Below are positions 1,760 through 55,399 of a DNA stretch of 64,000 nucleotides, in pieces. Source of the stretch: Candidatus Parcubacteria bacterium (GTDB lineage: Bacteria; Patescibacteriota; Patescibacteriia; Patescibacteriales; UBA12075); the NCBI GenBank assembly GCA_023132155.1, contig JAGLYP010000026.1:1741-65740 (forward strand). The letters are read 5' to 3'. The position numbers and the translations under genes were made by a program. The notes beneath the pieces were generated by a model that was given only the letters and a program-made list of their open reading frames with translations, made no database searches and was not told the DNA's origin. Within the stretch, counting starts at the first letter, position 1; each line of letters opens with the position of its first letter.

Positions 1760-4700
1760 ATGCAATCCCCATTGCTGAAAAAAATTAGAGCAATCTCTTC
1801 TAATATTTTATTTAGATTGGTATTTTTAATACTCTTATTAATGGCCGTGTTCAATTTTACACCCGGCCGTTTTATTTTTGTTAAAGCTTTTAACAATGAA
1901 ATTAAAATATTTCCCGGAAAATACGCGGTAGAGGAAAATGATGCGGAAAATTTTGTTTGGGAGAATGTTAATAACGCTTTTTTACAGTATTTATCTCCGG
2001 ATTCCGAGCTATCTGAATTTAATCAAGATAATTCGGCTTTTATTGCCTTGCGAAAAACAGATAAAAGCCAATCCAATGTTAAGGCCTTGCCGGAGCTTGG
2101 AAATTCCGAAGAATCCTCCGGCGCTGAAGCTATGGCGGGCAAGGATGACGCAAGTGATAATAGTGAAACCGAAGATGAGCTATTTGAGGTTATTGTAGAC
2201 GAGAATAATAAAGACGAGACGGCCGATAATATTGAAGAAAACAAGCAAGAGGATAGTGAAAGCCAAACATTGGCGCCCGATTTTGTCAGCGGCCCGGGAG
2301 ATGGCGATTTTGAAATAAAAAATATGGACTCAGGTCAAGTTGGCGGCAACAGCCAAACAATAAAGCAGGATAGCGATCAGGAGAAATCCGAAAACGAAAC
2401 TGAAAATCAAGATGGTGATTCGGAAAACGATCGGAAAGGTGAAGATAATCTTGAATTGAGCGGAGTTTATGAAAAAATAAAATCTTTATTTTCTTATTTT
2501 GATTTATTCGCGATTTTTAATAAAAATTCAGCTAATGCTGAAGAAAAATTACTTCAGCAAAGCGTGATTTTTTCCGATTTTAGCGTTCCTTTTGAATATA
2601 AAGACAGAGAAATAAATAGCTTGAATTTGTATTTGTCATTAGCGGCGCGAAGCGCGCAAGAAAATGATAATTTATTTTTTGAATATAGCTTGGGTGAAAC
2701 ATGGGAGCAAATAAGCGTTTTGGAATTGAATCAAGAATATTCCAATTCCGTTAATGGCGGATATTTTAATTTTCAGTTATCTGAGATAATCGGCTGGGAG
2801 GAGATTGAAGATTTAAAAATTAGAATTTCATATAACAGCAATAGTCCGCGGTTAGCAATGGAAAGTAATGCTGAAATTTTGGATTTTTTTGTATTTTTAG
2901 ATTCCCTTTGGATAGAAATTGAATATGATGATATGGACGAAGAGCAAGAAATAAGTGAAAGTGATTATATTCCTCAGTATAAAGAAAATTTTAATGGCGA
3001 GGAAGCGAAAGATGACGATTTAAGCGAATATAGCGTTGATTTATTGAATACTAAAGTTAATTTTAAAATAACCGAGAATCCGGAACTGAATTTTCGCTAT
3101 AAAAAGAATAAAAACTTGATTAATAAAATTATTTCCGGGCTTATCAGCCCTTTTAGCGATGAATATAATCATATAAAAATTTCCGCTGATTTGCGCGATG
3201 CCAGAGGTGATAAAACTGAACTTAAGCCGGAAGTTCGCTATATTAGCGAGGGGGAATTTTTAGTTAAGATTCCGGAAAATATCCGTGAGTTTAGACCAGG
3301 CAAATATTTTTTTGAGATTGAGATTGAAGATAAAGGTGAAATTTATCAGATAAGCCAGAATTTTAATTGGGGTGTTTTAGCGATTAATGTAAATAAAGCG
3401 GTTTATCGTCCCGGCGAAAGAGCTTATCTGCAGATGGGTGTTTTGGATGATTTTGGGCATACGCTTTGCGACGCGGATTTATTTTTAGAAATTACCGCGC
3501 CTAGCGACAAGACCGATATATTCAGCACTGATGATAATACGATTTTTAAGAATTCGGAATGCGCGGGCGATACTGTTATTTCGGGGTCTGATTATTATAG
3601 TTATTATTCCGTATTTGATACAGGAATTTATCGGATCAAGTTAAGGGCTGAAACAGAAAATGGGATTAGGGAAATATATGATGAATTCAAAGTTGAATCG
3701 GTTCAGTCTTTTGAACTTGAGCGGATTGGGCCGACTAGAATTTTTCCTTTAGCTGATTATGAAATGAAGATAATAATGCGCGCTAATGAAAGTTTTCAAG
3801 GAAATTTAGTTGAGTATGTTCCTGGTAATTTTAAAATTACGAATTACAAATTACACCTGTCAAGCGAGTACAAGCAAATTACGAATGAAGATATTAGTGT
3901 TCCTGATTCATTATTTTTAATTCAAGGCGATGAAATTGGTAAGAAGCTAATTTGGCAGAATCTTGATATAAAACCGGGAGATATCCTTGAATTTACATAT
4001 ACATTTGACGCGCCTGATGTTTCTCCGGAATTTTATTTGTTAGGTCCGTTAAAGCTGGTTGATGAGCATTATTTTAATTCCGGCGGAAAAAACGGTCAGT
4101 TGGTTTTTGAAGAAGAACGGCAATGGCAGGTTGCTTCTGACGCGGTCGCGGAATATGACGCCAATGGCGGTAGCAGTGTCGGCACTTGGGTTACTCCGTC
4201 TTACGCGTGGAATTCCGTAAATAATGATTATGCCATTCGCGATATACCGAAAAAGTCAGCAAGTGAAGAATATACAAATTATCTAATTGCCGATTCAAAC
4301 ACCGCCACTGACTTAGGTTATACGATTAATAGCGTTGAAATCGGTTTGGAGGCCTATATGGAAGATTTGCAAGCCGATATTACGGTTTATGTGCAGCCTT
4401 ATTTCGGCGGCACCGCCAGTGGAACAAGTTATGGTTTCGCGCAGTCCGTGTTGGGCACATCTGACGAGGATGTTGCGCATTATTACGATGTTACCAATGA
4501 CGCAAACGCGCCAAGTCCGTGGACATGGAGCGATATTATAAATTTAGATATTAAGCTTTGGGGCATAAACAATTCTAATTCCAGGCAGAGGATGTTTTAT
4601 ATTGATCAGCTCAGTATAATGGTTAATTACACTGAACCGAATGATCCTCCTGTCGGCGCGTTTAATTCAGCCACGCAAAAAAGAGATGGTGACGGAGTAG

Positions 4701-15955: not shown

Positions 15956-16006
15956 TATTTGGTTTTTTGTAAAATTAGTCTTTTATGTTATAATACAAAC
16001 AATAAC

Positions 16007-17758
16007 ATGCCAAAAACTTTATATATAAATATTGCAATATTTTTCGGGATAATTATCTCGGTGTTTTGTATTGGCATGCTGGCAATTACAAATTTAGGTC
16101 CATTAACTGTTGCCGCTGAAGAAGATGATGTTTTGCCGCCGCAGATTTCTAATATAAAAATCGGCAATGTTAGCGCTACATCTACGGTTATTACATGGGA
16201 AACTGATGAGCTGGCGGATTCATTAGTTAATTTTGGCTTAAATAAAAATTATGGGATTGTACGCGAGCCGCGTTTTGACAAGCTTGAACATGAAGTTATT
16301 TTAGATGAGCTTTTATCTGATTCAACTTATTATTTCCGCGTTACTTCCGCGGACGAAAAAGGCAATCAAGGAATATCCAGTGATCATTTTTTTGTTACTC
16401 CGACAGATAAACAATCTTCATTAACCGGCGGGAAAGACAAAGTTAACGCCATTGAAGAGATGATTGAAGAAGTTTTGGATTTGGTTAATCAAATTTCCAC
16501 CGGCGAGGAAATGGATAAAGTTGATGGCCGTCTGGATGATAAAGGCGGCGGCGATGAAAGATATTTTGAAGGTGCTTTGGGCGAGATTTTAGATATGTTG
16601 AAATTAATTGCCAGCGAGGAAAATATTGATTTGGAAGAAATTGAACGCGGAAAAGAGGTTGGCCGGCTTGAGGGCGGTGAAGGCAATATGGAATATGTTT
16701 CTTTAAAAGAAGTGCTTGAACTTTTAGATTCTATTTATCAGGAAGAAAGCTTGGAAATTATTGAACAAGAAGTTAAAGAAAAAGCGGAAGAAATTTTGGA
16801 GCCGCCGACTATTATTTTGGATTATGCCGATGTTGAAATTGGCATTGATTACGCGATAATTTCTTGGGCAACAGACAAAGAGTCAAATTCAATTGTCGCA
16901 CTAGCCGTTGAAGAAGATTATGACAGTGAAGCAGAGAATCCTTATGTATGGAAAGAGGGCGAACCGGACGAATTAGTGCTGGAACATTTAGTCTATATTA
17001 ATGGCTTAATTCCCGCCACAACTTATCATTTTCAAGTGCAGTCAAAATCAGCACTTGATTTAACCGGAAAAAGTATGGATAAAATTTTTAGGACTAAATC
17101 TATTGCTCCGGAAATATATAATTTGCAAATTGTTAAAATTGAAGAAGAAGCCGCGACAATTCGCTGGACTACCAATGTGCTTTGTTCTTCAATTGTGGAA
17201 TACACAAATCTTAATAATGCCGAAGCAAAACTTGAGGGAAATTCAAGTTTTATAACAGCGCATTCAATGCGTTTAACAAATTTGGTTTTTGATACTTATT
17301 ATTCGGCCGTAGTTAAGGTTGAAAGCGAAGACGGCGAAAAAGGGGAAAGTGAAATAATGACATTTATTACCACTCGCGATAAGTATCCGCCTGAAATTTC
17401 CCAAGTTAATACCGAGTCAACCATATATCCCGGATCGGACAACAAGATTCAAACGATTGTCAGCTGGCGCACTGATGAAGAAGCAATGTGCCAATTATTT
17501 TATCATCAAGGCTTGATATCAATGGACGAGCCGTCTTCATTGCCAAAAGAAGAAGATTACGCGTTTAAGCATGTTGAGGTGGTAACTAATTTTTTACCGG
17601 CCAGCGTTTATAAGTTTTGGATTGCTTGTGAAGATGAAGCTGATAACAATTCAAAGTCAGAAGATTTTACTATGTTGACACCGACCCAAGAAGAAAGTAT
17701 TATTGATATAATTATTAAGAATTTTGAAAGTTCATTCGGTTGGCTTAAGAGAAAATAG
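16007..17758 (+). CDS. membrane-anchored protein with four FN3-like domains
   Basis: The preferred start is ATG 16007 (MPKTLYINIAIFFGIIISVFCIGMLAI is a TM segment); the TTG at 15959 in the ORF track lies in a TATAAT-containing stretch. Four repeats follow the pattern 'PP.I......V....A.I.W.T.......V.Y..........H...L..L...T.Y.F.V', for example 'PPQISNIKIGNVSATSTVITWETDE...STYYFRVTSADEKGN'. An E/G-rich linker follows the first repeat. Confidence 0.75.
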   Translation: MPKTLYINIAIFFGIIISVFCIGMLAITNLGPLTVAAEEDDVLPPQISNIKIGNVSATSTVITWETDELADSLVNFGLNKNYGIVREPRFDKLEHEVILDELLSDSTYYFRVTSADEKGNQGISSDHFFVTPTDKQSSLTGGKDKVNAIEEMIEEVLDLVNQISTGEEMDKVDGRLDDKGGGDERYFEGALGEILDMLKLIASEENIDLEEIERGKEVGRLEGGEGNMEYVSLKEVLELLDSIYQEESLEIIEQEVKEKAEEILEPPTIILDYADVEIGIDYAIISWATDKESNSIVALAVEEDYDSEAENPYVWKEGEPDELVLEHLVYINGLIPATTYHFQVQSKSALDLTGKSMDKIFRTKSIAPEIYNLQIVKIEEEAATIRWTTNVLCSSIVEYTNLNNAEAKLEGNSSFITAHSMRLTNLVFDTYYSAVVKVESEDGEKGESEIMTFITTRDKYPPEISQVNTESTIYPGSDNKIQTIVSWRTDEEAMCQLFYHQGLISMDEPSSLPKEEDYAFKHVEVVTNFLPASVYKFWIACEDEADNNSKSEDFTMLTPTQEESIIDIIIKNFESSFGWLKRK

Positions 17759-17765
17759 TTTATTT

Positions 17766-17873
17766 GAGAATTAAGAATCAAGAATAAAGAATAAAGGGGA
17801 ATAAAAATTGCTTCGCAATTTAGTAGAAATAAATCTCCAATGCTTGATTCATAATTCTTTATTCTTTATTCTT
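17766..17873. repeat. heptamer array (AAGAATN x4) forming a 17-bp perfect inverted repeat with a 60-nt loop
   Basis: Left arm aagaataaagaataaag at 17780-17796 is the exact reverse complement of ctttattctttattctt at 17857-17873. The loop contains a second hairpin, AAATTGC-TTC-GCAATTT, at 17805-17821. Confidence 0.8.
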
Positions 17874-17884
17874 AACTAAAAAAT

Positions 17885-29608: not shown

Positions 29609-30937
29609 ATGGATATAAAAAAAATAAAAGTCTCGCAAAGCCCCGGTGTTTATTATTTTTTAAATAAACAAGGAAAAATAATTTATATCGGGAAAGCGGC
29701 GAATTTGAAAAGCCGCGTGTTTTCGTATTGGCGCAAAAGCGCCGGTTTGAGCGGCGCCAAACAGGAAATGATGAGGCAAATCGCGGATATTAAGTGTGTT
29801 GAAACCGATTCGGAAATAGAAGCTTTGCTTTTAGAGTCAAATTTAATAAAAAAGCATCAGCCGAAATATAATATTGATTTAAGAGATGATAAACGCTTTG
29901 TTTATATCAAAATTTCAACAGAAGATGAAATCCCCGGGGTTTTTATTACCAGAAAAATCGAAAAGCAAGGAAAGTATTTTGGTCCTTTTATATCTGTGTT
30001 TGCCGTAAAAGATGCGTTAAAAGCAATTAGAAAAATATGGCCGTATTGTACAGAGCGAAAAATTAAAAATAAGCCTTGTTTTTACGCGCAAATCGGGCGT
30101 TGTGTCGGGGTTTGCGGCGGTAATTTTGATTTAAACGAATACAAAGAAAAAATTATTAAGCCGATTGTGATGTTTTTGGGTGGGAAGAAAAATGTGATAA
30201 TTAAGAATTATGAATTAAGAATTAATAATTTAGAGAAGAAATTAATAAATAATAAAAATGATGAGAAAATTTTGGAAGAGATTACGCGATTAAAGCGGAA
30301 ATTATTGAATTTAAAGTATATATTGGCGTGCGCGAATGTTATTGGAATTTCTGAAAAGTACGCGGCTGATGTGTTTGAGTTGGCTAAAGTTTTGGGTTTG
30401 CCTAAAGTGCCTGAGCGGATAGAAGGGTATGATATATCCAATATTTTCGGGCGTGAAGCGGTTGGGTCAATGGTGGTTTTTTCCAATGGCGAACCTGATA
30501 AAAGAGGTTATCGCAAGTTTAAAATAAAAGTTGGCAGTGAAATGGGGGATACGGGGATGTTGAAGGAGGTATTGGAAAGGAGATTGAAGTATGCAGTAAA
30601 TAATGGCTTGCGCTCCGAAGCTTCAGCGAAGGAGTGGCCTAGTCCCGATTTAATTATTATTGACGGCGGAAAGGGACAGCTTAATTTGGCGGTGAGATTA
30701 TTAAAAAAAGAAAAATTGGGTATTCCTGTGATAGCCGTGTCAAAAGGCAAGGGGTTAAGGGGCGCGAACGCGCTTGATAAGATATTTTTTCCGGGAGAAA
30801 AAAAGCCGCTTGAATTACCATTGGCTTCACCTGCTTTGCATATTATAAAACGTGTTCGCGATGAAGCGCATCGTTTCGCGATTAAATATCATCGGGAGTT
30901 GAGGAGGAAAAGTTTTGTGAAAAGTGCAAGAAACTAA
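29609..30937 (+). CDS. uvrC: excinuclease ABC subunit C, short form lacking the C-terminal (HhH)2 domain
   Basis: GIY-YIG 'GVYYFLNKQGKIIYIGKAANLKSRVFSYW' and 'IKKHQPKYN'. The endonuclease region carries 'IEGYDISN', 'PDLIIIDGGKGQL' and 'RVRDEAHRFAIKYHR'. The protein ends 13 aa later at 442 aa, versus ~600 typical. Confidence 0.85.
   Translation: MDIKKIKVSQSPGVYYFLNKQGKIIYIGKAANLKSRVFSYWRKSAGLSGAKQEMMRQIADIKCVETDSEIEALLLESNLIKKHQPKYNIDLRDDKRFVYIKISTEDEIPGVFITRKIEKQGKYFGPFISVFAVKDALKAIRKIWPYCTERKIKNKPCFYAQIGRCVGVCGGNFDLNEYKEKIIKPIVMFLGGKKNVIIKNYELRINNLEKKLINNKNDEKILEEITRLKRKLLNLKYILACANVIGISEKYAADVFELAKVLGLPKVPERIEGYDISNIFGREAVGSMVVFSNGEPDKRGYRKFKIKVGSEMGDTGMLKEVLERRLKYAVNNGLRSEASAKEWPSPDLIIIDGGKGQLNLAVRLLKKEKLGIPVIAVSKGKGLRGANALDKIFFPGEKKPLELPLASPALHIIKRVRDEAHRFAIKYHRELRRKSFVKSARN
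30197..30231 (+). repeat. in-frame NNAATTA heptamer array inside uvrC
   Basis: ATAATTA AGAATTA TGAATTA AGAATTA ATAATTT encodes 'IIKNYELRINNL'. Confidence 0.8.
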
Positions 30938-31024
30938 GTACATACGATTTTTTTGTTATCCGTAGGAACAGGGCAGTACCCTGTTCCTACGGATAACAAA
31001 AAAATCGTAGGTACTTAGTTTCTT
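30928..31024. terminator. 97-nt palindrome (30-bp perfect core stem); bidirectional terminator between convergent uvrC and uvrB
   Basis: acgatttttttgttatccgtaggaacaggg (30944-30973) is the exact reverse complement of 30979-31008. The outer arms aagaaactaagtac (30928-30941) and gtacttagtttctt (31011-31024) include the last two codons and the stop of both genes. Confidence 0.85.
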
Positions 31025-32820
31025 TTAATTGTCCGCGGCGTGATGCCGTGTTTTTTATTATAAGCAATTTGCATTTTTCTGCGCCTTTTAGTTTCGTTTA
31101 CAGCATAAGTAATTGCTGGAGTGATTTTATCGCCGTACATAATAACTCTGCCTTCAACGTGGCGGGAGGTGCGTCCCATTGTTTGCATAAGCGAGGTTTC
31201 ATTTCTTAAAAAGCCGGACATGTCAGCGTCAAGAATCGCGACCAACGATACTTCCGGCAAATCCAGACCTTCGCGCAGAAGATTGATTCCCACCAGCACA
31301 TCGTATTTGCCAAGTCTTAAGTCCCTGAGAATATCAACACGCTCCAAGGTTTTTATTTCCGAGTGCAGATATTGGACTTTGATTTTTTCTTCTGCCAAGT
31401 ATTCTGCCAGTTCTTCAGCCATTCTTTTAGTTAAAGTTGTTACCAATACCCGCTGTTTTTTAATAACTGTTTTTTTTATCTCTTTTAGCAAATCCGGAAT
31501 CTGCCCGGTGCTTGGACGAACCATAACTTCCGGATCCAAAAGGCCTGTCGGTCGGATAATTTGTTCAACGACTTGTTTTGATTTGCGTATTTCATAGTCT
31601 TTTGGCGTGGCGGAAACATAAATTACTTGATTGATTTTAGAATTAAATTCTTTAAAATTTAATGGGCGATTGTCTTTGGCGCTTGGGAGCCGGAAGCCGA
31701 AATCAATTAAAGTTTGTTTGCGGGATTGGTCGCCCGCGTACATGCCGCGAATTTGCGGAATACTAACGTGCGACTCATCAATAAATAATAAAAAATCTTT
31801 TGGAAAAAAATTCATAAGAGTGGATGGCGGTTTTCCCGGATTGCGGTTGCTTAAATGCCGCGAGTAATTTTCTATGCCATTACAATAGCCGATTTGTTCA
31901 ATCATTTCCAAGTCAAAATTTGTTTTTCGCTCCAAACGGTACGCTTCTACTTGTTTATTTTGTTTGCTTAATTCATTTAAACGTTTTTTAAGCTCCAGCC
32001 GGATATTTGTTAAAGCTTTTTCCATTCGGTCTTTAGGAGTCATAAAATGTTTAGCAGGCAGAATATTTATACTGTCCAGTTTTATCGCCTGCTTGTTTCT
32101 TAAGTCTTTTGCCCAAACCGGTTCAGTAGCGCCGGGTTTAACATTGAAAATATAAATATTTTCAATTTTATCGCCATACATTTCAATTCTTACAACCGAT
32201 TCGCCGGTAGATAAATGAATATCAATCATGCCGCCATTAACCCTGAATTGTCCTCTGTAAAACGCGGTATCGTTTCTTTCATATTGAATGCCGACCATCT
32301 GCCGCAAGAGTTCGTTTCTTTTTATTTTTTGCTTAACGCTGAAAATCCGCCCTAAATTTTCATAATCTTTTTTTTCTCCCAAACCGTAAATGCAGGAAAC
32401 GCTAGCCACTATAATTACATCCTTACGATTAATTAATGATTGCGTTGAGGCATGCCGCAGGCGGTCTATTTCTTCGTTAATTGTCGCTTCTTTTTCAATA
32501 TAAGTATCAGTTTGCGGAATATAGGCTTCCGGCTGGTAATAATCGTAATAAGACACAAAATAATGCACTGCCGCTTGAGGAAAAAATTGCTTAAATTCTC
32601 CGTATAGCTGCGCCGCCAAGGTTTTATTATGGGACATAATTAATGTCGGTTTTTGCGTTTTTTCTATGATATTAGCCATAGTAAAAGTTTTGCCGCTTCC
32701 GGTAACGCCAAGCAATGTTTGGTTTTTTTTGCCGGCCTTTAAGCCGGCTGTTAATTTTTTAATCGCAATCGGCTGATCACCGGCCGGCTTGTATTTTGAA
32801 TGAAGTTTAAATAAGCTCAT
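31015..32820 (-). CDS. uvrB: excinuclease ABC subunit B, short form lacking the C-terminal UVR domain
   Basis: '[15 protein letters not shown]', Walker A '[10 protein letters not shown]', and helicase motifs 'DESH' and 'QTMGRTSRH'. It ends at '...[15 protein letters not shown]' (601 aa), just after helicase domain 3. Confidence 0.9.
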
Positions 32821-35589: not shown

Positions 35590-38583
35590 ATGAAAAAACA
35601 AGAAAATAATGAGAATAAAATAAAAAAGAACCCTTTTGCGATAATGGAAGAGGATGTTTTAAAATTTTGGGAAAAGAATAAAATTTTTGAAAAATCAATT
35701 GAAAAAGAGGCGCCAAAAGGCGATTATGTTTTTTATGACGGGCCGCCGTTTATTACCGGATTGCCGCATTACGCGACGCTTCTTCCAAGTATTGCCAAAG
35801 ATATGGTGCCGCGCTATTGGACTATGAAAGGTTATAGAGTAGAGCGTGTTTGGGGCTGGGATTGCCATGGCTTGCCTGCGGAAAATAAGGTGGAAACAGA
35901 ATTGGGTTTGAAAAATAAAAAAGATATTGAAGAGCTGGGGGTTGATAAATTCGTAAACGCTTGCCGTGACTATGTTACCACCGGTTCAGAGCAATGGGAA
36001 TGGTATATTAATCGTATCGGCCGCTGGGTGGATATGAAAAACGCCTACAAAACCATGGATTTAAAATTTATGGAAAGCGTAATTTGGGCATTTAAAAAAT
36101 TGTATGACAAAGGCTTGATTTATGAGGGTTATCGTTCTTCACTGCATTGCCCTCGCTGCGCGACTCCGCTTTCAAAGTTTGAAATTACAATGGACGCGGG
36201 TTCTTATAAGGATGTTATTGATGATTCGGCTGTTGTTAAGTTTGAGATAAAAAATGTTAATAAAATATTGGCAGACTTGGAGCTTAGTTCCGAAGCTTCG
36301 GAGCTAAGCTCCGTGAATAGCAATGTTTATATTTTGGCTTGGACTACTACGCCTTGGACTTTGCCCGGAAATTTAGCTTTGGCGATTAATAAAAGTATTA
36401 AGTATCAAGTATTAAGTATTAACGATAATAATTATATTATTGCAAAAGACAGGGTTGAGGAAGTTTTTAAGGATAGAGGATATAAGATAATAAAAGAGTT
36501 TAAGGGTAAAGAATTGGTTGGGCTAGAATATGAGCCGTTGTTTGATTTGGGAAATAAAGAAATTTCTGAAAATAAGAATACATATAAAATATATCACGGA
36601 GATTTTGTTTCCACTGAGGAGGGGACGGGGGTCGTGCATATCGCGCCGAATTTCGGTGAAGATGATTTTGAATTTGGCAAAGCATATAAATTGCCAATGG
36701 TTGATTTAATGGATGAGATGGGAAATTATACTGAATTGGCGGGCGAGGAATGGAATGGATTGTATTTTAAAAAAGTTAATACAAAAGTTTTGGAAATATT
36801 GGGTGATAAATTATTTTTAAAGGAGCCCCACGAGCACTCATACCCCTTTTGTTACCGCTGTAATAGCCGTTTGATTTATAAAACTCAAAAGGCCTGGTAT
36901 TTGCGAATTTCAGAAATTAGAAATAAAATGCTTGAAAGCAATAAAGATATTAACTGGGTGCCGGAATATTTTAAAGAGGGCAGATTCAAATATAATCTGG
37001 AAAACGCGCCGGATTGGTGCTTGTCTCGTTCTCGGTATTGGGGTTCGCCGATTCCTGTTTGGCGCTGTGAGGAATGTGATGAAATTAAAGTTGCTGGTTC
37101 AGTTGAAGAAATTAAGAAATTAAGCAATGAAGAAGTTAAAGACTTACACAGGCCGGCAATTGATAAAGTTGAGTTTAAATGTGAAAAGTGCCAGGGAAAA
37201 ATGAAGCGAGTTGTTGAGGTTTTGGATTGCTGGTTTGAGTCTGGATCAATGCCTTTTGCGCAATTTCATTATCCTTTTGAACGAAAAAAAGAATGGAAAA
37301 ATATTTTTCCGGCAGATTTTATTATTGAATATACGGGCCAATTAAGAGGCTGGTTTTATTATTTGCATGTTTTGTCTAATGCCTTATTTGATTCTTTGGC
37401 ATTTAAGAATGTAATTGTATCCGGCGTACTCGCGGGAACAGATGGGCGCAAAATGAGCAAGTCATACGGCAATTATCCTGATTCAAAAAATACTTTAGAT
37501 AAATATGGGGCTGACGCTCTTAGATTGTATTTTATGTCATGTTCAATTATGGCCGGGGATGACACAACTTTAAGCGAAAAAGATATTCAGGATGCTTTGC
37601 GAAAAAATGTTATGCTTTTGTGGAATGTCACCAAATTTTATGATATGTTTTGCCATGATAAGGAAACCATAAAAGAAGATTTGGAATTTAAAAATATTTT
37701 AGATAGATGGATTGTTTTTAGGTTAGATCAGGTAGTTAAAGAAGTTACAGATAATATGGAAAAATATAGTTTACAAGGAGCGGCGCGTCCGATTACAGGG
37801 TTTATTGACGATTTGTCAACCTGGTATCTGAGGCGTTCTCGAGATCGTTTTAAAGGTGATGATAAAAATGATAAAATTCAGGCTTTAAAAACAACAAAAT
37901 ATGTTTTATTAACATTTTCCAAAGTGATCGCGCCGATTATGCCGTTTATTGCGGAACAAGTTTGGCAGAAAGTTAGCGGGAATGATTTTAAGAATGAGAA
38001 TAAATCAGTACATTTGGAGGGATGGCCTAAACAGGAATTACGAATTACACCCGTCAAGCGAATACAAGCGAATTACGAATTACGAATTTTGGAAGAAATG
38101 GAAATAGTTAGGAAAATTGTGGAATTGGCGCTTGCGAAAAGGGATGAGGCGGGAATAAGGGTGAGACAGCCGTTGAGCGAATTACGAATTACGAATTGTG
38201 AATTACGAGATGAATATATGGATTTAATTAAGAATGAATTGAATGTTAAAGATATAAAAACAGAAAAAGGCGATGGGGAATTAAATGTGAAATTAGATAT
38301 AAAATTAACACCGGAATTAAAACAGGAGGGTATGAAAAGAGAGATAGTCAGAACGGTTAACAGCATGCGCAAGAATATTGGCTTAACAATAAACGATAGG
38401 ATAGTTTTGTTCTGGCAAAGCGAAAATCAAGATATAATTCAAGCAATAAAAAAATATTCTAATGATATTCGCGGCGATGTTTTGGCTGATGAAATAAAAA
38501 ATGAAAAAAATGATGAAGTTGATATTCAGAAGGAAATAAATTTAGATTGTGGAATATTATTTTTAGGCATAAAAAATAAATAA
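35590..38583 (+). CDS. ileS: isoleucyl-tRNA synthetase
   Basis: 'FYDGPPFITGLPHYATLL' (HIGH region), 'WTTTPWTLPGN' (editing domain), 'KMSKS', and Zn-ribbon-like 'CYRC...CEEC' and 'CEKC'; 997 aa. Confidence 0.95.
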   Translation: MKKQENNENKIKKNPFAIMEEDVLKFWEKNKIFEKSIEKEAPKGDYVFYDGPPFITGLPHYATLLPSIAKDMVPRYWTMKGYRVERVWGWDCHGLPAENKVETELGLKNKKDIEELGVDKFVNACRDYVTTGSEQWEWYINRIGRWVDMKNAYKTMDLKFMESVIWAFKKLYDKGLIYEGYRSSLHCPRCATPLSKFEITMDAGSYKDVIDDSAVVKFEIKNVNKILADLELSSEASELSSVNSNVYILAWTTTPWTLPGNLALAINKSIKYQVLSINDNNYIIAKDRVEEVFKDRGYKIIKEFKGKELVGLEYEPLFDLGNKEISENKNTYKIYHGDFVSTEEGTGVVHIAPNFGEDDFEFGKAYKLPMVDLMDEMGNYTELAGEEWNGLYFKKVNTKVLEILGDKLFLKEPHEHSYPFCYRCNSRLIYKTQKAWYLRISEIRNKMLESNKDINWVPEYFKEGRFKYNLENAPDWCLSRSRYWGSPIPVWRCEECDEIKVAGSVEEIKKLSNEEVKDLHRPAIDKVEFKCEKCQGKMKRVVEVLDCWFESGSMPFAQFHYPFERKKEWKNIFPADFIIEYTGQLRGWFYYLHVLSNALFDSLAFKNVIVSGVLAGTDGRKMSKSYGNYPDSKNTLDKYGADALRLYFMSCSIMAGDDTTLSEKDIQDALRKNVMLLWNVTKFYDMFCHDKETIKEDLEFKNILDRWIVFRLDQVVKEVTDNMEKYSLQGAARPITGFIDDLSTWYLRRSRDRFKGDDKNDKIQALKTTKYVLLTFSKVIAPIMPFIAEQVWQKVSGNDFKNENKSVHLEGWPKQELRITPVKRIQANYELRILEEMEIVRKIVELALAKRDEAGIRVRQPLSELRITNCELRDEYMDLIKNELNVKDIKTEKGDGELNVKLDIKLTPELKQEGMKREIVRTVNSMRKNIGLTINDRIVLFWQSENQDIIQAIKKYSNDIRGDVLADEIKNEKNDEVDIQKEINLDCGILFLGIKNK
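36279..36312. repeat. 34-nt near-perfect palindrome in frame inside ileS
   Basis: ggagcttagttccgaag|cttcggagctaagctcc has one mismatch pair and encodes 'LELSSEASELSS' in the variable linker before WTTTPWTL. Confidence 0.8.
38034..38089 (+). repeat. in-frame heptamer (CGAATTA) array 1 inside ileS
   Basis: GGAATTA CGAATTA [3 degenerate units in phase] CGAATTA CGAATTA CGAATTT encodes 'ELRITPVKRIQANYELRIL'. Confidence 0.8.
38178..38205 (+). repeat. in-frame heptamer (CGAATTA) array 2 inside ileS
   Basis: CGAATTA CGAATTA CGAATTG TGAATTA encodes 'ELRITNCELR'. Confidence 0.8.
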
Positions 38584-39839: not shown

Positions 39840-39887
39840 TATTCGCATGTCCCGCATTTGTAGTTGCGGGTTCGCGAAGCGAATAAC
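39840..39887. repeat. REP-like hairpin element, copy 2
   Basis: TATTCGCATGTCCCGCA-TTTGTAGT-TGCGGGTTCGCGAAGCGAATAAC. The arms are identical to 21004-21069. It lies 10 nt upstream of ATG 39897. Confidence 0.8.
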
Positions 39888-39896
39888 TTAAAAACT

Positions 39897-41075
39897 ATGG
39901 CTTTTTCAAACAAGAAAAAAAATGAAGATAAAATAGATATTATTAAATTGGTAAATGATATTTTTTATCAAGGCATAGAAGAGGGGGCAAGCGATATCCA
40001 TATTCAGCCGTTTAAAGACGGGATTATAGTGCGTTATCGTATTGATGGAATTTTAAGAACGGTATTTGAAGGTGATAAAGGTTTAAGTGATTTTATGTTT
40101 TCGCGCATTAAAATTTTAGCGGATATGGAAACAACAGGATTGCCGCGCCCGCAAGAAGGAAATATTAAATTTAAATTTAATGAAAATCATGTTGATTTGC
40201 GCGTATCTATTTTTCCAACCAGCCAGGGAGAAGCGGTGGTGGTGCGTATTTTAGAAAGTAAAAAGTTTTTTAAAGAATATAATGATTTGGGGTTTAACGC
40301 TGAGCAAACAGCAGCTTTGGAAAAAATTACAAAAAAGCCATACGGATTAATTTTGGTTACAGGCCCTAATGGCAGCGGAAAATCAACAACGCTTTTTACC
40401 GTATTAAATAAGCTTAACATTCCTGAAAAAAGCTTGGTTACTTTAGAGGATCCTGTTGAAAGAAAAATAGATATGGTTAGGCAAACCAATATTAATCCGG
40501 CAATCGGATTAACTTTTGCCAAAGGATTAAAATATTTGTTAAGGCAGGATCCCGATGTTTTGATGGTGGGAGAGATTCGCGATAAAGAAACAGCGAATAT
40601 AGCCGTGCAGGCCGCCGTAACCGGACATTTGGTTTTGGCGACAATTCACACAAATAACGCGGCCGGCGCTATTGTTCGTTTAATTAATATGGGAATTGAA
40701 CCGTTTTTATTATCTTCAGCCTTAAAATTTGTTTCAGCGCAAAGATTGGCAAGAACAAATTGTCCGCATTGTAAAAAAGAATATCGCCCTTCTAAAGAAC
40801 TAATTGATATTCTTGGCGCTCCGCGAGGAATTAAATTTTATCATTCAGAAGGCTGTGATGAGTGCGGCGGCAAAGGCATGAAGGGCAGGCAAGGGATTCA
40901 TGAGGTATTGTTAATTTCCAAATCAGTTCAGGAATTGATTTTACAGCGGCCATCCGATGATCATATTAATAATTTGGCCGTAAAAGAAGGAATGGCAACA
41001 TTAAGGCAGGCCGCGCTGCAAAATGTTTATAGTGGAAATATCAGCATTGAAGAAGCGATCAGGCTCACGGAATAA
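39897..41075 (+). CDS. pilB: type II/IV secretion ATPase (GspE/PilB family), short form
   Basis: Preferred start is ATG 39897; the TTG at 39864 lies inside the hairpin element. Walker A 'GPNGSGKSTT', Asp box/Walker B 'LRQDPDVLMVGEIRD', His box 'TGHLVLATIHTN' and tetracysteine 'CPHCK...CDECGGKG'. Confidence 0.8.
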   Translation: MAFSNKKKNEDKIDIIKLVNDIFYQGIEEGASDIHIQPFKDGIIVRYRIDGILRTVFEGDKGLSDFMFSRIKILADMETTGLPRPQEGNIKFKFNENHVDLRVSIFPTSQGEAVVVRILESKKFFKEYNDLGFNAEQTAALEKITKKPYGLILVTGPNGSGKSTTLFTVLNKLNIPEKSLVTLEDPVERKIDMVRQTNINPAIGLTFAKGLKYLLRQDPDVLMVGEIRDKETANIAVQAAVTGHLVLATIHTNNAAGAIVRLINMGIEPFLLSSALKFVSAQRLARTNCPHCKKEYRPSKELIDILGAPRGIKFYHSEGCDECGGKGMKGRQGIHEVLLISKSVQELILQRPSDDHINNLAVKEGMATLRQAALQNVYSGNISIEEAIRLTE

Positions 41076-41113
41076 TGAATAATTAAAAATTAAGAATTAA
41101 TAATTAACAATTA
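41070..41113 (+). repeat. intergenic heptamer array (GAATAAT x2, then NNAATTA x5)
   Basis: AATTA recurs at exact 7-nt spacing from 41081 to 41113, starting at the pilB stop. Confidence 0.8.
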
Positions 41114-41152
41114 AAATCACATTCTCGTTCTGCTTTTAAATTTTATTTTTAA

Positions 41153-41180
41153 GTATTGTGTGGTGCGTGATGCGTGTTTA
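41153..41180 (+). repeat. GTGNTGC heptamer array upstream of lemA
   Basis: GTATTGT GTGGTGC GTGATGC GTGTTTA ends 11 nt before ATG 41191. Confidence 0.6.
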
Positions 41181-41781: not shown

Positions 41782-42717
41782 ATGAAATTTATAGATATGC
41801 CAACACTCTATAATCACTCAGACTCAAATAAACGAAAAACCTGGCTTTTGCTGTCCGGTTTTTTGATTTTTGTTATCTTAGTCGGATATATTTTTAGCGT
41901 TGCCATGGAAAGCCCTATCATCTTGTATTTTGTTGTTGGCTTTAGCATAATTTCAGCATTTGTCAGTTATTGGTGGAGTGATAAAATTGTTTTATCAATG
42001 TCTGACGCCAAGCCCGTGAAATTTGATGATAACAAAGAATTGTATAGAATAGTTGAAAATCTTTGCATTACCGCAGGACTGCCGGTGCCAAAGATATACA
42101 TTATAAACGATACCGCTCCTAATGCGTTTGCTACCGGACGCGATCCCGAGCACGCGGTTGTTGCGGTAACCGCCGGTCTTTTGCAAAAACTGGACAGAAG
42201 CGAATTGGAGGGCGTAATCGCGCATGAGCTTTCCCACATAGGGAACAGGGATATTCTGCTCGCTACCGTAGTTACGGTTTTAGTCGGCGTTGTCGTGCTT
42301 TTGGCTGATTGGTTCAGGCGCTGGACTTTTTGGGGCGGGGCAAGGAGAAGAAATAATGAAAAAGGCGGACAATTACAGCTTGTTATAATGATTATCGCGA
42401 TTATTTTATCTATTTTAGCGCCGATTTTCGTTTATATGATGCAATTTGCGATTTCCCGCAAACGAGAATTTTTGGCCGACGCTGACGGTGCTTTGCTGAC
42501 CCGCTATCCCGAAGGACTGGCGCGCGCTTTGGAAAAAATATCAGCAGATACTGAGCCTCTGGAAGTTGCTAATCGGGCAACAGCACATCTTTATATTTCT
42601 TCGCCGTTTGAGGGCAAAAGAGATAGGCGGGATAAGAAGAGTTTTTTTAAGAAGGCTTTTATGACACATCCGCCAGTTAAAGAAAGGGTTGCGGCTTTGA
42701 GGGGGATGGAGATTTAA
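41782..42717 (+). CDS. htpX: M48-family zinc metalloprotease HtpX
   Basis: TM helices, 'PNAFATGRDPEHAVVAVTAGLL' and HExxH 'AHELSHIGNRD'. A later 'EFLADADGA' is present and 'THPPVKERV' lies near the C-terminus. Confidence 0.9.
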   Translation: MKFIDMPTLYNHSDSNKRKTWLLLSGFLIFVILVGYIFSVAMESPIILYFVVGFSIISAFVSYWWSDKIVLSMSDAKPVKFDDNKELYRIVENLCITAGLPVPKIYIINDTAPNAFATGRDPEHAVVAVTAGLLQKLDRSELEGVIAHELSHIGNRDILLATVVTVLVGVVVLLADWFRRWTFWGGARRRNNEKGGQLQLVIMIIAIILSILAPIFVYMMQFAISRKREFLADADGALLTRYPEGLARALEKISADTEPLEVANRATAHLYISSPFEGKRDRRDKKSFFKKAFMTHPPVKERVAALRGMEI

Positions 42718-42755
42718 TTATCAATTTTCAATTAGGAATTAAAAATTAAAAATTA
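42714..42755 (+). repeat. intergenic heptamer array (NNAATTA x6)
   Basis: AATT(A/T) recurs at 42716, 42723, 42730, 42737, 42744 and 42751. The array begins within the htpX stop codon. Confidence 0.8.
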
Positions 42756-42777
42756 TTTAAAAGCTAATTAAAAAACC

Positions 42778-47325: not shown

Positions 47326-49404
47326 ATGGCTAGCTTAGCGGAAAAAATATTTAAACCATCTGCCAGAGGCAAAATCTGGCGCGTTTTTTTAGTTATTATT
47401 TTATTGGTTTTTATCGGCGGTCTTGTAGATGTTGGTAATTATTATAATAAAGGCACAGATTATATTGCTTGGAAAACCAATGGAACGATTAAGTTGCCAA
47501 AGACAAAGGAAATTCCTTTTCGTTTAGGGCTTGATCTACAAGGCGGCAGCCATCTTGTGTATGAAGCTGATATGTCGGAGATTCCAGATAGCGATAGATC
47601 CGGAGCGTTGGAGGGTGTAAGAGACGTAATTGAAAGAAGAGTTAATGTTTTCGGCGTAAGCGAACCATTAATACAAACCAGTCTTTCTGGCGGTAACTAC
47701 CGTATCATTGTGGAATTAGCCGGTATCAAGGACGTGGGTGAGGCAATCAAAATGATTGGAGAAACTCCTTTGCTTGAATTTAAAGAAGAGACCCAGGAAA
47801 TTAGAGAGCTAACCGAAGAAGAGCAAAAAACCATGGAAAAATATAATACAGAGGCGGATAAAAAAGCGGAAGATGTGTTTGGCAAGTTATTGTCAGGAGG
47901 AGATTTTGACGCTTTGGCCAAAGAATATAGCGACGATCAAAATACAAAAGAAACCGGCGGGGATTTGGGCTGGATAACGGAAAAAGAAGCGCCGCAAATT
48001 ATTGCCAAAATCAAGGATTTTGAAATTGGGCAAATAAGCGAGGATTTGGAAAAGGAAGAATTGGGTTATGATATTTTAAAATTGGAAGATAAGCGCTTGC
48101 GCGTTAATCCTTTTGATGAAAGCGAAGTGGAAAAAGAAGTTAAAGCTTCGCATCTATTGCTTTGCCACAATGAAGTTGAAAATTGCGAAAACGGTTTAAG
48201 CAAGGACGAGGCTTACGCGAAAATTAAAGAAATAAAAGCGCGAGCCACTCCTGAGAATTTTGCCGGTTTAATAAAAGAGCACTCAACCGAACCCGGAGCC
48301 GACACTCGCGCCGGAGATTTGGGCTGGTTTGCCAAGGGAGCGATGGTAAAGCCTTTTGAGGACACTGTTTTTGACCAAGAGACAGGAACAATTTCTTATG
48401 TTATTGAAACGCAGTTTGGTTATCATTTGATTTATAAACAAGCCGAAAGGGATATTTATGAGTATAAAATAAGGCGTTTGTTTATCCGTATTTTAACTGA
48501 ACGAGATATAATCGGCGATCAAAAAGAATGGAAATTAACGGAATTAACAGGAAAAAATTTAGAGCGCGCGGCGGTGCAATTTGACCCAAATGACAATAGT
48601 CCGATTGTCAGTTTGGAATTTGACAGCGAAGGCGCGGATTTGTTCGCGGACATTACCGAAAGGAATGTCGGCAAGCCCGTAGCGATATTTTTAGACGGCG
48701 AGCCGATAAGCACTCCGAATGTTAATGAAAAAATTACCGGCGGCAAAGCGGTTATATCCGGTAAATTTAATATCCAAGAAGCGAAATTATTAGCCCAAAG
48801 GCTTAACGCCGGCGCCTTGCCGGTTCCGATTGAACTTGTCGGCCAGCAGACAGTCGGAGCCAGCCTGGGCAAGATTTTTTTGGAATCAAGTTTGAAGGCC
48901 GGATTAATCGGATTAATATTGGTGGCGTTTTTTATGATTTTTTATTATCGTTTGCCTGGGATTTTCGCGGTTATATCATTGGCGATTTACGGTATATTGG
49001 TTTTGGCGATATTTAAGCTTTGGCCGGTAACATTGACCTTGTCAGGCATGGCCGGATTTATTCTTTCAATCGGCATGGCGGTTGACGCGAATGTCTTGAT
49101 TTTTGAGCGCTTAAAAGAAGAGCTTAAGTCGGGCCGACCTTTAATTTTGGCAATTGAAGATTCTTTTTTGCGCGCATGGCCGTCAATTCGCGATGGCAAT
49201 GTTTCCACTTTGGTTACTTGTCTTATTTTGATTTGGTTTTCAACCGGCGTGGTAAAAGGCTTTGCCATTACTTTGGGTCTGGGTATTTTAGTGTCAATGT
49301 TTTCGGCAATAGTGATTACCAGAAATTTATTGTGGCTTTTTAAGCCTGAGTGGCTGGAAAAAAGGATGTGGCTGATCAGTGGCGGGGTTAAAATTAAGAA
49401 TTAA
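47326..49404 (+). CDS. secD: protein translocase subunit SecD carrying an inserted tandem parvulin (PpiC-type PPIase)-like region
   Basis: SecD hallmarks are 'GLDLQGGSHLVYEAD', 'VIERRVNVFGVSEPLIQ' and 'LNAGALPVPIELVGQQTVGASLG', plus 6 C-terminal TM helices. Residues ~155-400 contain 'ASHLLL...GDLGWFAKGAMVKPFEDTVF....GTISYVIETQFGYHLIYK' and a second degenerate copy 'GGDLGWITEKE..'. Confidence 0.85.
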   Translation: MASLAEKIFKPSARGKIWRVFLVIILLVFIGGLVDVGNYYNKGTDYIAWKTNGTIKLPKTKEIPFRLGLDLQGGSHLVYEADMSEIPDSDRSGALEGVRDVIERRVNVFGVSEPLIQTSLSGGNYRIIVELAGIKDVGEAIKMIGETPLLEFKEETQEIRELTEEEQKTMEKYNTEADKKAEDVFGKLLSGGDFDALAKEYSDDQNTKETGGDLGWITEKEAPQIIAKIKDFEIGQISEDLEKEELGYDILKLEDKRLRVNPFDESEVEKEVKASHLLLCHNEVENCENGLSKDEAYAKIKEIKARATPENFAGLIKEHSTEPGADTRAGDLGWFAKGAMVKPFEDTVFDQETGTISYVIETQFGYHLIYKQAERDIYEYKIRRLFIRILTERDIIGDQKEWKLTELTGKNLERAAVQFDPNDNSPIVSLEFDSEGADLFADITERNVGKPVAIFLDGEPISTPNVNEKITGGKAVISGKFNIQEAKLLAQRLNAGALPVPIELVGQQTVGASLGKIFLESSLKAGLIGLILVAFFMIFYYRLPGIFAVISLAIYGILVLAIFKLWPVTLTLSGMAGFILSIGMAVDANVLIFERLKEELKSGRPLILAIEDSFLRAWPSIRDGNVSTLVTCLILIWFSTGVVKGFAITLGLGILVSMFSAIVITRNLLWLFKPEWLEKRMWLISGGVKIKN

Positions 49405-49424
49405 GAATTAAGAATTAATAATTC
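49390..49424 (+). repeat. heptamer array (AGAATTA x3 plus variants) spanning the secD stop
   Basis: AAAATTA AGAATTA AGAATTA AGAATTA ATAATTC. The last four secD codons and its stop ('KIKN*') lie inside the array. Confidence 0.8.
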
Positions 49425-49448
49425 AATAATTCTAATTATTTAAATTAT

Positions 49449-54281: not shown

Positions 54282-54330
54282 AAGTAGAAAGTTATAAAGT
54301 GTAATTATTAATTGCATCGCACCATTTTTG

Positions 54331-54358
54331 TTATGTGTTGCGTGTTATGTGTTGTGTG
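54331..54358 (+). repeat. 7/14-nt periodic TTATGTG-TTGYGTG array overlapping the mreB start region
   Basis: TTATGTG TTGCGTG TTATGTG TTGTGTG. The 7-nt periodicity also extends upstream through the proS 3' end (GAAAGTT TAAAAGT AGAAAGT ...). Confidence 0.7.
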
Positions 54359-55399
54359 TTTAATAAATTATTAGGAAAATTTAGCAAAGATCTCGGCATA
54401 GATTTAGGCACGAAAAATACTCTTGTCTATACCGCTGATAAAGGCATAGTTATTAATGAGCCGTCGGTTGTGGCCGTGAATACGCGCACTGATGAAATTT
54501 TGGCTGTGGGGGACGAAGCCAAAAAAATGGTTGGGAAAACTCCAGGCCATATTCAGGCGATAAGGCCTTTGGTTGACGGTGTAATTTCCGATTTTGAAGT
54601 TACTGAAAAAATGCTTAAATATTTTATTGATAAGGTTCACGCGGAAAGTTTTACGTTAATTCCGCGTCCGCGAGTTGTTATCGGCATCCCTTTGGATATT
54701 ACCGAGGTGGAAAAAAAGGCGGTTAAAGACGCTGCAAAATCAGCAGGGGCCAGACAGGTGTATTTAATTGAGGAGTCAATGGCGGCCGCTATCGGCGCGC
54801 GTTTGCCGGTAGCCGATCCGACCGCGACTATGATAGTTGATATTGGCGGCGGAACTACGGAAATTTCGGTAATTTCTTTGGGCGGGGTTGTTTCATGGAA
54901 ATCGCTTAGACAGGCGGGAAATGAATTGGATAATAATATAATTCAATATTTTAGGGATGAGTTTAGCATATTAATCGGCGAGCAAGTAGCGGAAAATGTT
55001 AAATTGCAAATCGGTTCGGCCGCTGTTTTAAAAGAGCCGATGGAGATGGAAGCGCGCGGAAGAGATCTTATTAACGGCTTGCCTCGCGCCGTTGTTATTA
55101 ATGACAGCCAAATTAGAGAAGCTATTAGCAGAACGGTTAATCAAGTCATTGATAACATAAAAATTACCATGGAAACCACTCCGCCCGAATTGGTTTCTGA
55201 TATATATGAGCATGGCATAACTTTGGCCGGCGGCGGCGCGCTTTTAAGGGGCTTGGATAAAGAAATCGCGCAAGCTACAAAGATTCCCGTGCGAGTAGCG
55301 GATGATGCCTTGACTTGCGTTGTTAGGGGCGCGGGGATTTTATTAGAGGATCCTGAATTGCTGGAAAAAGTTTTGACTCCAAATAGCGATGAATTTTAA
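54347..55399 (+). CDS. mreB: rod shape-determining protein MreB
   Basis: 'FSKDLGIDLGTKNTLVY', 'VVAVN', 'RPLVDGVISDFE', 'MIVDIGGGTTEISVISLGG' and 'GITLAGGGALLRGLD'. The start is ambiguous: GTG 54335, ATG 54347, or GTG 54356. The last gives 'VFNKLLGKFSKDLGIDLG', which parallels E. coli 'MLKKFRGMFSNDLSIDLG'. Confidence 0.92.
   Translation: MCCVFNKLLGKFSKDLGIDLGTKNTLVYTADKGIVINEPSVVAVNTRTDEILAVGDEAKKMVGKTPGHIQAIRPLVDGVISDFEVTEKMLKYFIDKVHAESFTLIPRPRVVIGIPLDITEVEKKAVKDAAKSAGARQVYLIEESMAAAIGARLPVADPTATMIVDIGGGTTEISVISLGGVVSWKSLRQAGNELDNNIIQYFRDEFSILIGEQVAENVKLQIGSAAVLKEPMEMEARGRDLINGLPRAVVINDSQIREAISRTVNQVIDNIKITMETTPPELVSDIYEHGITLAGGGALLRGLDKEIAQATKIPVRVADDALTCVVRGAGILLEDPELLEKVLTPNSDEF

Follow-up and report, generated by a model that had tools for sequence, protein, structure and literature searches.

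Heptameric simple sequence repeats are over-represented in many bacterial genomes, and it has been hypothesized that the footprint of the polymerase favors slippage by 7 nt (Rehm et al., 2015; PMC4692102). Arrays of the unit TAACTGA, known from Beggiatoaceae, Cyanobacteria and Bacteroidetes, extend over the stop codon of the upstream gene and in the reverse orientation are translated as LSVISYQ repeats located mostly at protein termini (MacGregor, 2015; PMC4679880). Small dispersed repeats (SDR) of 21–27 nt are described from Nostocaceae (Elhai et al., 2008, as related in PMC5861425 and PMC2884548), and are said in the former to be absent outside that family. In the literature, no paper was found that contains the peptide NYELRI or ties heptanucleotide repeats to Patescibacteria or the candidate phyla radiation (CPR). 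The present analysis concerns a 64,000-nt stretch of contig JAGLYP010000026.1 from a Candidatus Parcubacteria bacterium (assembly GCA_023132155.1; hereafter the window), in which an array of heptamers lies in frame within the nucleotide excision repair gene uvrC and is translated into NYELRI. This segment is probably one of a genome-wide class of AT-rich heptanucleotide repeats that are made and homogenized at the DNA level, which here would have overwritten helix 1 of the UVR hairpin in place.

The gene and its array are positioned as follows:

29609..30937, + strand: uvrC open reading frame (ORF), 442 aa, with GIY-YIG and UvrC RNase H domains (Pfam)
30197..30231, + strand: uvrC heptamer array, units AATTAAG/AATTATG/AATTAAG/AATTAAT in the AATTNNN register, encoding I197-L208, 'IIKNYELRINNL'

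An earlier note on this DNA, made from the letters alone, had described five phased heptamers at this place, and these are evident both in the letters of 30197-30231 (ATAATTA AGAATTA TGAATTA AGAATTA ATAATTT) and in the output of Tandem Repeats Finder, which calls a period-7 repeat at 30199-30234 (5.1 copies, 82% matches, score 51). At least ten further period-7 arrays were detected in the window by the same program, and GAATTANGAATTA occurs seven times where 0.08 occurrences are expected. When arrays are counted from four units and ≥85% periodic matches upward, the window contains eight of period 7, as against 0.17 in Markov shuffles, and none of periods 8–12. Related loci totalling 1.24 Mb hold 65 arrays of period 7, as against 18, 9, 5, 0 and 0 for periods 6, 8, 9, 10 and 11, respectively. 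Period 7 is therefore strongly in excess in both data sets, as the note had anticipated for a genomic repeat.

The uvrC site was compared in an alignment of 30 UvrC orthologues (62–83% identity) and in a set of 80 UvrC loci fetched from GTDB genomes; loci of other genomes are designated below by L numbers. No gap is found at the array segment among the 30 aligned orthologues (consensus 'IIKNYELRIKNLEK'). Exact NYELRI is present at this site in 43 of 119 close homologues, and the looser pattern N-(Y/F/L)-(E/K/Q)-(L/F/I/V)-x-I in 63 of the 119; the recurrence of NYELRI in 43 homologues, taken together with the equal length, argues that a native helix was converted in place. The heptamer found at the site differs between lineages:

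AATTAAG/ATG: the window and L004
AATTACA, five copies: L005
AATTACG: L007, L008, L018 and L036
AATTTAA: L010 and L026
AATTTGA: L015
AATTTTC, four copies: L017
ATTTCCR, four copies: L019

The encoded peptides diverge radically (IIKNYELRI, VITNYKLQI, IISNLKFKI, IIFNFQFSI and IISDFQFPI, one of them with a proline). Unit identity is 0.829 within arrays, compared with 0.686 between genomes for units of the same index and 0.679 for units of different index, and the observed within-array value was matched in none of 5000 permutations; the units evolve in concert within uvrC arrays. Array codons also disregard the synonymous codon usage of the host gene, the GC content at third codon positions (GC3) of the array and of the rest of uvrC being 0.08 and 0.70 in L010, 0.00 and 0.54 in L026, and 0.08 and 0.38 in the window. 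The likeness of units within arrays and the codon-usage anomaly together point to a process that acts on DNA and homogenizes the units. With the periodic codons of the peptide-bearing orthologues and the co-variation within arrays, they uphold the note's preference for a DNA-level repeat over convergent protein evolution. Neither a shared peptide written in non-periodic codons nor a lack of enrichment was seen: the orthologues that bear the peptide use periodic codons, and the arrays are enriched. In the relative L097 (82% identical) the uvrC units are AATTACG/AATTACA where the window has AATTAAG/AATTATG, and homogenization is therefore recent. Arrays are patchy on the UvrC tree, being absent from L009 and present in its sister L010, and absent from L003 and present in the window; the neighbor-joining tree is rough and serves only to display this patchiness, not to count gains and losses.

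A second variable UvrC site ('LERRxKH' to 'WPxPDL') carries arrays in L097 (6083-6119), L003 (1201-1235) and L028 (1405-1441), with units CACACAA, AAACACG and AAAATTA; the window has no array there.

The protein context of the uvrC array is given by two further features:

30188..30331, + strand: predicted helix-loop-helix, a vestigial UVR hairpin (AlphaFold2, aa 194-214 and 219-241, pLDDT ~77-87)
31015..32820, - strand: uvrB, 601 aa, with PF12344 at its end and without a C-terminal UVR domain

The note had placed the array where UvrC normally has its UVR coiled coil, and this position was recovered: in the translated matches to distant CPR UvrC the Pfam UVR domain lies at residues 191-225, the homologous place. 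Distant CPR UvrC proteins (Saccharibacteria, Levybacteria, Microgenomates) contain the canonical UVR motif 'GKKKxVLKxLEKEMxxASxxxxFExAAxLRDxI', encoded there by non-periodic DNA, and in UvrC of the Falkowbacteria-like clade the segment is of equal length with no detectable UVR motif. Pfam detected neither a UVR motif nor a (HhH)2 domain in the window UvrC; PF02151 has no match in the window UvrC, P0017 or P0021, and matches UvrC of L049 and L044 at the homologous place. In the AlphaFold2 model of the window UvrC, the stretch from the Cys-rich region to the RNase H domain includes a helical hairpin, and the array encodes part of helix 1 of this vestigial UVR hairpin. UvrB in the clade stops 9–24 aa past GITPxxI in every member whose locus includes uvrB; UvrB tails in CPR lineages with a canonical UvrC UVR are 71–79 aa long and include the UVR motif. 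These sequences show that the UVR-UVR contact of UvrB and UvrC was lost jointly in the Falkowbacteria-like clade. The constraint on helix 1 would plausibly have been relaxed as a result, since UvrB has no UVR domain for it to contact.

The recurrence of NYELRI follows from the arithmetic of the frame. Because 7 mod 3 = 1, a perfect heptamer array encodes the same cyclic heptapeptide in three frames; (GAATTAC)n, for example, gives ELRITNY in all three, and its reverse strand contains stop codons. The 'same reading phase' in uvrC and ileS, to which the note had attached significance, is automatic, because the frames of a heptamer array are equivalent, and carries no weight as an argument. UvrC and IleRS share NYELRI because GAATTAN units, any frame of which yields ELRIxNY, make up both arrays. 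Pure GAATTAN arrays are open only when N is C, and AAG units require an interspersed ATG unit, as in uvrC. Three units correspond to 21 nt or seven codons, and the AATT core gives a heptad x-N-(Y/F/L)-(E/K/Q)-(L/F)-x-I that is compatible with amphipathic structure. A homogenized array has no synonymous site, because every position of the unit falls successively on the first, second and third position of a codon, and this absence may be sufficient to explain the persistence of the AATT core in GC-rich genes.

The second gene that encodes the peptide, ileS, contains arrays at three sites:

35590..38583, + strand: ileS ORF, 997 aa, type-2 IleRS
36393..36422, + strand: site C array of AAGTATT units, translated as 'SIKYQVLSI', within the loop of variable length that follows GNLALA
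38034..38089, + strand: site A composite, (GAATTAC)x2, a 21-nt core and (GAATTAC)x2.7, encoding 'ELRITPVKRIQANYELRIL'
38178..38208, + strand: site B array of CGAATTA units, translated as 'ELRITNCELR', immediately following the conserved RQPL

Sites A and B agree with their earlier description. Site A, which precedes 'ILEEME', is a variable linker. Lineage-specific peptides with a 7-aa period occur at sites A and B of relatives (ELRIKNYELR, ELGIMNQELG, KLRIMNYKIR, FSIFNFQFSI, ESRQQTADSRK), and periodicity at site B was found in 20 of 119 homologues, compared with 0.75% at random positions. At the DNA level, ileS contains (TTTTCAA)x4 in L001 and L005 and (GAATTAC)x4 in L003, in a locus of 47% GC, and the unit at site A of L002 is GCAGACA. 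Where site B has no array a native segment of similar length is present (L025 'GANVSNCTLAEAY' versus 'SELRITNCELRDEY' in the window), and the solved IleRS2 8C8U has 'QSLSLVVTEEDVEWKAY' at this place. Site A of the window is 12 aa longer than that of L097 (80% identical, with no array there) and 9 aa longer than that of 8C8U. On these comparisons, insertion appears to fit only at site A; the lineage-specific insertion or expansion proposed earlier for both genes does not hold for uvrC, the array-free orthologues of which are of equal length, and survives at ileS site A alone.

The arrays constitute a dispersed class with a common period rather than a common unit. Over 1.305 Mb including the window, which contain 73 arrays, non-coding DNA holds 230 arrays per Mb and coding DNA 37, and the mean GC of the arrays is 0.21 as compared with 0.41 for the loci. 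The class is typical of the Falkowbacteria-like clade, to which the source of the window belongs: arrays occur there at 87/Mb versus 32/Mb in other CPR. Repeats of this kind are also known from cyanobacteria, Xanthomonas and Beggiatoaceae. No one fixed unit defines them: some 40 canonical classes were distinguished among 75 arrays, 42 of which contain AATT, and what they have in common is the period and an AT-rich AATT core. Inverted pairs of arrays are found at 17767/17843 in the window and in L011, L012 and L081, and intergenic pairs often fold into hairpins. Between the window and L097, which share 80–82% aa identity, the uvrC units differ, and the arrays at ileS site A and in the 41071 spacer are absent from L097. 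The class thus displays the features of short tandemly repeated repetitive (STRR) sequences, namely 7-nt head-to-tail units, dispersed and over-represented arrays, an intergenic bias to gene ends and variation between relatives. Outside the clade, a search with (NYELRIT)6 returned 363 small ORFs, the named ones mostly from Nostocales, with Tannerella and WWE3 in addition, and a perfect (GAATTAC)x17 was found in Cylindrospermopsis raciborskii (GCA_002893245.1; L098 1501-1620), abutting an assembly gap of Ns.

Long arrays such as this last evidently break assemblies. In L073 (Omnitrophota, 58% GC), three abutting arrays at 4889-4994 (GTCCCAG x4, GGAAGCG x4 and ATTCACG-like x4) resemble classical STRR clusters. 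Many GTDB records with CPR-type UvrC, UvrB and IleRS (L010, L011, L017 and others) are titled 'uncultured Gammaproteobacteria bacterium', and these titles are probably placeholders that carry no taxonomic meaning.

The most likely mechanism is one in which slippage generates arrays and transient out-of-register misalignment during replication or repair copies a variant base to a neighboring unit, leaving length unchanged. Misalignment or gene conversion is invoked because a viable one-unit slip is impossible in the essential ileS. Spacers are densest in arrays, and units such as AATTAAG, which hold TAA in every frame, often provide the stop codon of the upstream gene there. Survival within a gene would require a stop-free mixture of units, the sense strand, a length that keeps the frame and a structurally tolerant site, at which the AATT-core heptad could take the place of an amphipathic helix or strand. 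For UvrC this would mean that helix 1 of the one-time UVR hairpin was overwritten by the array with no change of length, the tolerance of the array being explained by the constraint presumed to have relaxed after UvrB lost its UVR domain.

Several points weigh against this explanation. That slipped-strand mispairing generates the arrays is inferred from assembled sequence, and homogenization without indels, whether by transient misalignment or by gene conversion, would likewise be a deduction. The census covers the 64-kb window and fragments of relatives, and genomes with an array at the uvrC site have 64 flank arrays per Mb versus 33 in the others, a difference that is not significant (p = 0.13). 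Even where the host gene has 52–54% GC, the array remains AT-rich and keeps its AATT core, and the array DNA of L010 (10579-10615) and L026 (3484-3521) is ~90% identical over ~48 nt when the proteins are 62% identical and the flanking DNA has diverged. The AATT core in GC-rich genes and the likeness of these two arrays could reflect selection on the DNA or RNA sequence itself.

As to its origin, the L010/L026 likeness could represent retention, convergence or transfer.

A further reading draws on a 21-nt sequence nested in some of the arrays:

38049..38069, + strand: 21-nt core ACCCGTCAAGCGAATACAAGC, enclosed by the heptamer units of ileS site A
3834..3886, + strand: array-core-array composite in a 4731-aa ORF, with the core at 3855-3875 (ACCTGTCAAGCGAGTACAAGC) in a frame that differs from the ileS copy ('HLSSEYKQ')

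Both window copies of this core (ACCYGTCAAGCGARTACAAGC; 3855-3875 and 38049-38069), which are read in different frames, have GAATTAC-type units on both sides. A metagenome scan yielded 16 exact copies in 14 contigs; seven of the core-bearing contigs are from Falkowbacteria and four are labelled Spirochaetes. Heptamer units enclose the core (ACCCGTCAAGCGAGTACAAGC) in 14 of its 18 copies, and are of one type on both sides (in the metagenome contigs AATTTTC, AATTTCG or AAAATTC) except in L083, where the two flanks differ. The four Spirochaetes-labelled copies have no heptamer arrays, and in them the identical 21-mer is part of a different conserved element of ~110 nt. It is in frame, as 'HPSSEYKQ', in an AddA-like helicase, an O-antigen ligase and a glycosyltransferase, which with the two proteins of the window makes five unrelated in-frame hosts, and it occurs also in intergenic DNA beside gatA and ligA. 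The core is missing at ileS site A of P0132, P0137 and L097, and scans of 1.24 Mb of other CPR loci, of viral contigs and of PLSDB plasmids gave no copy. In being 21 nt long, multi-copy, dispersed, nested in repeats and present or absent at orthologous sites it has the attributes of an SDR, and it may add a new case of tiny mobile elements beyond the cyanobacteria.

Two other identities considered for the core were rejected: a promoter (the reverse complement contains TTGACG), its orientation to flanking genes being mixed, and a composite transposon, because what lies between paired cores, in L084 as in L091, is ordinary gatA/ligA and not a transposase.

Arrays and core could together have been left by a DNA-writing or mobile process that is active and directed by sequence, operates in Patescibacteria, is horizontally shared with other phyla and can overwrite helices of essential proteins in frame, as opposed to passive slippage. 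Horizontal sharing enters this proposal because the 21-mer is found in Spirochaetes-labelled metagenome-assembled genomes (MAGs) and GAATTAC in Nostocales, and the agent may be a tiny non-autonomous element that duplicates a 7-bp target, or else an activity that switches templates. This reading is considered unlikely.

It is also unlikely that the arrays are functional cis-elements selected as binding or pausing sites in DNA or mRNA, with the coding copies kept for their nucleic-acid signal. Candidate roles would include AU-rich translation leaders, S1/Csp-type binding sites, terminator hairpins and nucleoid-protein sites. Occupation of the same uvrC and ileS sites across many lineages, retention of the AT-rich AATT core in GC-rich genes and the near-identical array DNA of L010 and L026 are compatible with this proposal, as is the position of intergenic arrays, which end 10–22 nt ahead of the next start codon or pair inverted into hairpins; a regulatory role has been proposed for TAACTGA arrays just upstream of start codons (PMC4679880). 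However, the units are very diverse, since no more than 42 of 75 arrays contain AATT and some units, among them GCAGACA and GTCCCAG, are GC-rich, and presence differs between sisters (L009 and L010; L003 and the window; L097 and the window, at ileS site A and in the 41071 spacer). Orientation to neighboring genes is mixed, Rfam gave no match, and without synonymous sites in a homogenized array protein-level selection alone can explain the AATT core.

That a mobile genomic repeat recently landed or expanded in uvrC and ileS, as extra DNA in this lineage, is very unlikely. In its favor, one unit family is shared by intergenic arrays and two unrelated genes, ileS site A exceeds an 80%-identical relative by 12 aa and the solved IleRS2 by 9 aa, and the 21-nt core, in frame in unrelated proteins as well as intergenic, behaves as an inserted module. 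Against this, the uvrC site is equal in length with and without an array, the array-type peptide pattern is present there in 63 of 119 homologues, and the ileS site B array replaces a native segment of similar length ('GANVSNCTLAEAY' in L025, 'SELRITNCELRDEY' in the window). The uvrC array is associated with no terminal inverted repeats, target duplications or transposase, and, lacking a palindrome and adding no length, it does not resemble in-frame mobile insertions of the Rickettsia palindromic element (RPE) or miniature inverted-repeat transposable element (MITE) kind. That NYELRI is itself selected, the 7-nt period being a by-product of AT-rich codons (AAT TAT GAA TTA AGA ATT), is scarcely credible despite the conservation of the peptide in many UvrC orthologues, its location within a predicted amphipathic helix, the AT-rich synonyms used for all its codons and the similarity of the canonical UVR helix 'VLKNLEKRM' to 'IIKNYELRI', as the site holds radically different peptides each from its own perfect heptamer (IIFNFQFSIFNL, IISDFQFPISDY, VITNYKLQITNY), the array codons run against the usage of the gene (GC3 0.08 versus 0.70), the same units form arrays in non-coding DNA with stops in all frames, and a 7-aa periodicity predicts a 21-nt, not a 7-nt, period.

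The remaining arrays of the window are located mainly between genes:

17767..17796, + strand: intergenic array AGAATWA, beginning 9 nt past the stop codon of ORF 15959..17758
17843..17873, - strand: inverted partner array, forming a long hairpin with 17767-17796 (minimum free energy -25.1 kcal/mol, z = -2.84)
41071..41114, + strand: array AATAATK/AATTAAN, including the stop codon of ORF 39864..41075
42716..42756, + strand: array AATTNNN, overlapping the stop codon of ORF 41782..42717, 22 nt from the next start codon
44335..44360, - strand: inverted array (TAATTCT), 10 nt upstream of ORF 44370
49388..49438, + strand: array (TTAAGAA)n, including the last codons and stop of ORF 47326..49404 ('VKIKN*'), 11 nt from the next start codon
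54329..54360, + strand: array TGTTATG/TGTTGCG, of unrelated unit, directly before or at the start of ORF 54335..55399

The intergenic arrays reported in the note exist, but their description as purely intergenic does not apply to three of them, which include the stop codon of the upstream ORF. The array at 41071 is missing from the orthologous spacer of L097. The unrelated unit at 54329..54360 shows that the period, and not one unit, is the common feature; a GTGCGTG ATGCGTG doublet near 41160 resembles this array. The fold of 17755-17885 is more stable than that of shuffled sequence (z = -2.84), and the hairpin region at 17767-17873 may be a terminator or processing site. Within this inverted pair is a perfect small hairpin with a UUCG loop, AAATTGC-TTCG-GCAATTT (~17806-17822). 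A motif beside the inverted arrays (ACAATTTTCA/TGAAAATTGT), at first thought to be conserved, was discarded as merely the GAAAATT unit. No Rfam family was matched in the window, in five related loci or in the Spirochaetes element, and no tRNA or tmRNA was found in the window.

The 4731-aa ORF (1760-15955, + strand) contains long internal repeats 1.5–3 kb apart and a weak match to fibronectin type III; its product is probably a surface protein, and it is conceivable in principle that the array at 3834-3886, near the 5' quarter of the ORF, acts as a frameshift (phase-variation) switch. Phase-variable switching appears implausible for uvrC and ileS, which are housekeeping or essential genes with short imperfect tracts. 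Over the whole window (1-64000) nearly all long ORFs are on the + strand and the GC skew is positive throughout, as in a single replichore with co-oriented genes, and any strand bias of the arrays is therefore not assignable to replication rather than transcription.

If the arrays are taken as repeats made and homogenized at the DNA level, mutation of simple sequence is able to reshape conserved proteins with housekeeping roles (UvrC, IleRS) in ultra-small bacteria: in many lineages, and at recurrent sites, native helices or strands give way to repeat DNA that is translated. The rule that three 7-nt units make a heptad, with a frame-independent peptide and no synonymous site, explains odd recurring metagenomic peptides such as NYELRI and FSIFNFQ. 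In CPR genomes, translated repeat segments of this kind can be a source of error for alignments, domain calls, phylogenies and selection tests. The UvrB and UvrC sequences in addition document a joint loss of the UVR contact in one clade.

Among described repeats that are read as protein, the RPEs, reportedly described by Ogata and colleagues in 2000, are said to be palindromic, mobile elements of 100–150 bp that lie in frame in protein genes and add residues. The present arrays would be similar in that a selfish or neutral DNA repeat is translated inside essential proteins at tolerant sites, but the uvrC array is a non-palindromic tandem repeat of 35 nt that adds no residues. A closer likeness is to the cyanobacterial STRR sequences (Mazel et al.), which are likewise composed of 7-nt head-to-tail units in a few to tens of copies, forming many dispersed arrays, mainly intergenic near gene ends and sometimes in inverted pairs. 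The link is strengthened by GAATTAC itself, which forms the 17-copy array in Cylindrospermopsis, and by the (NYELRIT)n ORFs, which are mostly from Nostocales. The arrays differ from STRR sequences in their host, a reduced-genome Patescibacterium; in their AT-rich and diverse units, as against one or three fixed units; in the substantial share that lies in frame within conserved housekeeping genes at orthologous internal sites; and in the concerted evolution of their units at unchanged length.

The TAACTGA repeats (MacGregor, 2015; PMC4679880) correspond to the present arrays in having stops in all frames of the forward orientation, in overlapping the upstream stop codon and preceding the next start codon, in encoding a repeating heptapeptide within ORFs in the opposite orientation, and in their cross-phylum distribution. 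Their copies within ORFs are at protein termini or in hypothetical proteins, whereas those described here are in the interior of UvrC and IleRS, where they replace native elements and, unlike TAACTGA repeats, recur at one site across lineages with different units. GGGAATC in Xanthomonas and GGGGAYT in Nostoc (Rehm et al., 2015; PMC4692102) are also intergenic within 50 bp of a stop or start codon, form inverted pairs and vary in length and sequence between close relatives at the same intergenic sites, although the present arrays are AT-rich, cannot form G-quadruplexes and occur in coding DNA. The 21-nt core is comparable, by description only, to the SDRs, which PMC5861425 and PMC2884548 depict as very small, dispersed, multi-copy, nested precisely in repeats and present or absent at orthologous sites; the hosts of the core are Falkowbacteria and Spirochaetes-labelled MAGs, whereas SDRs are reported in those accounts only from Nostocaceae. 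New to the present arrays are the host clade, the AT-rich units with an AATT core, the in-frame replacement inside UvrC and IleRS at orthologous sites, and length-neutral homogenization.

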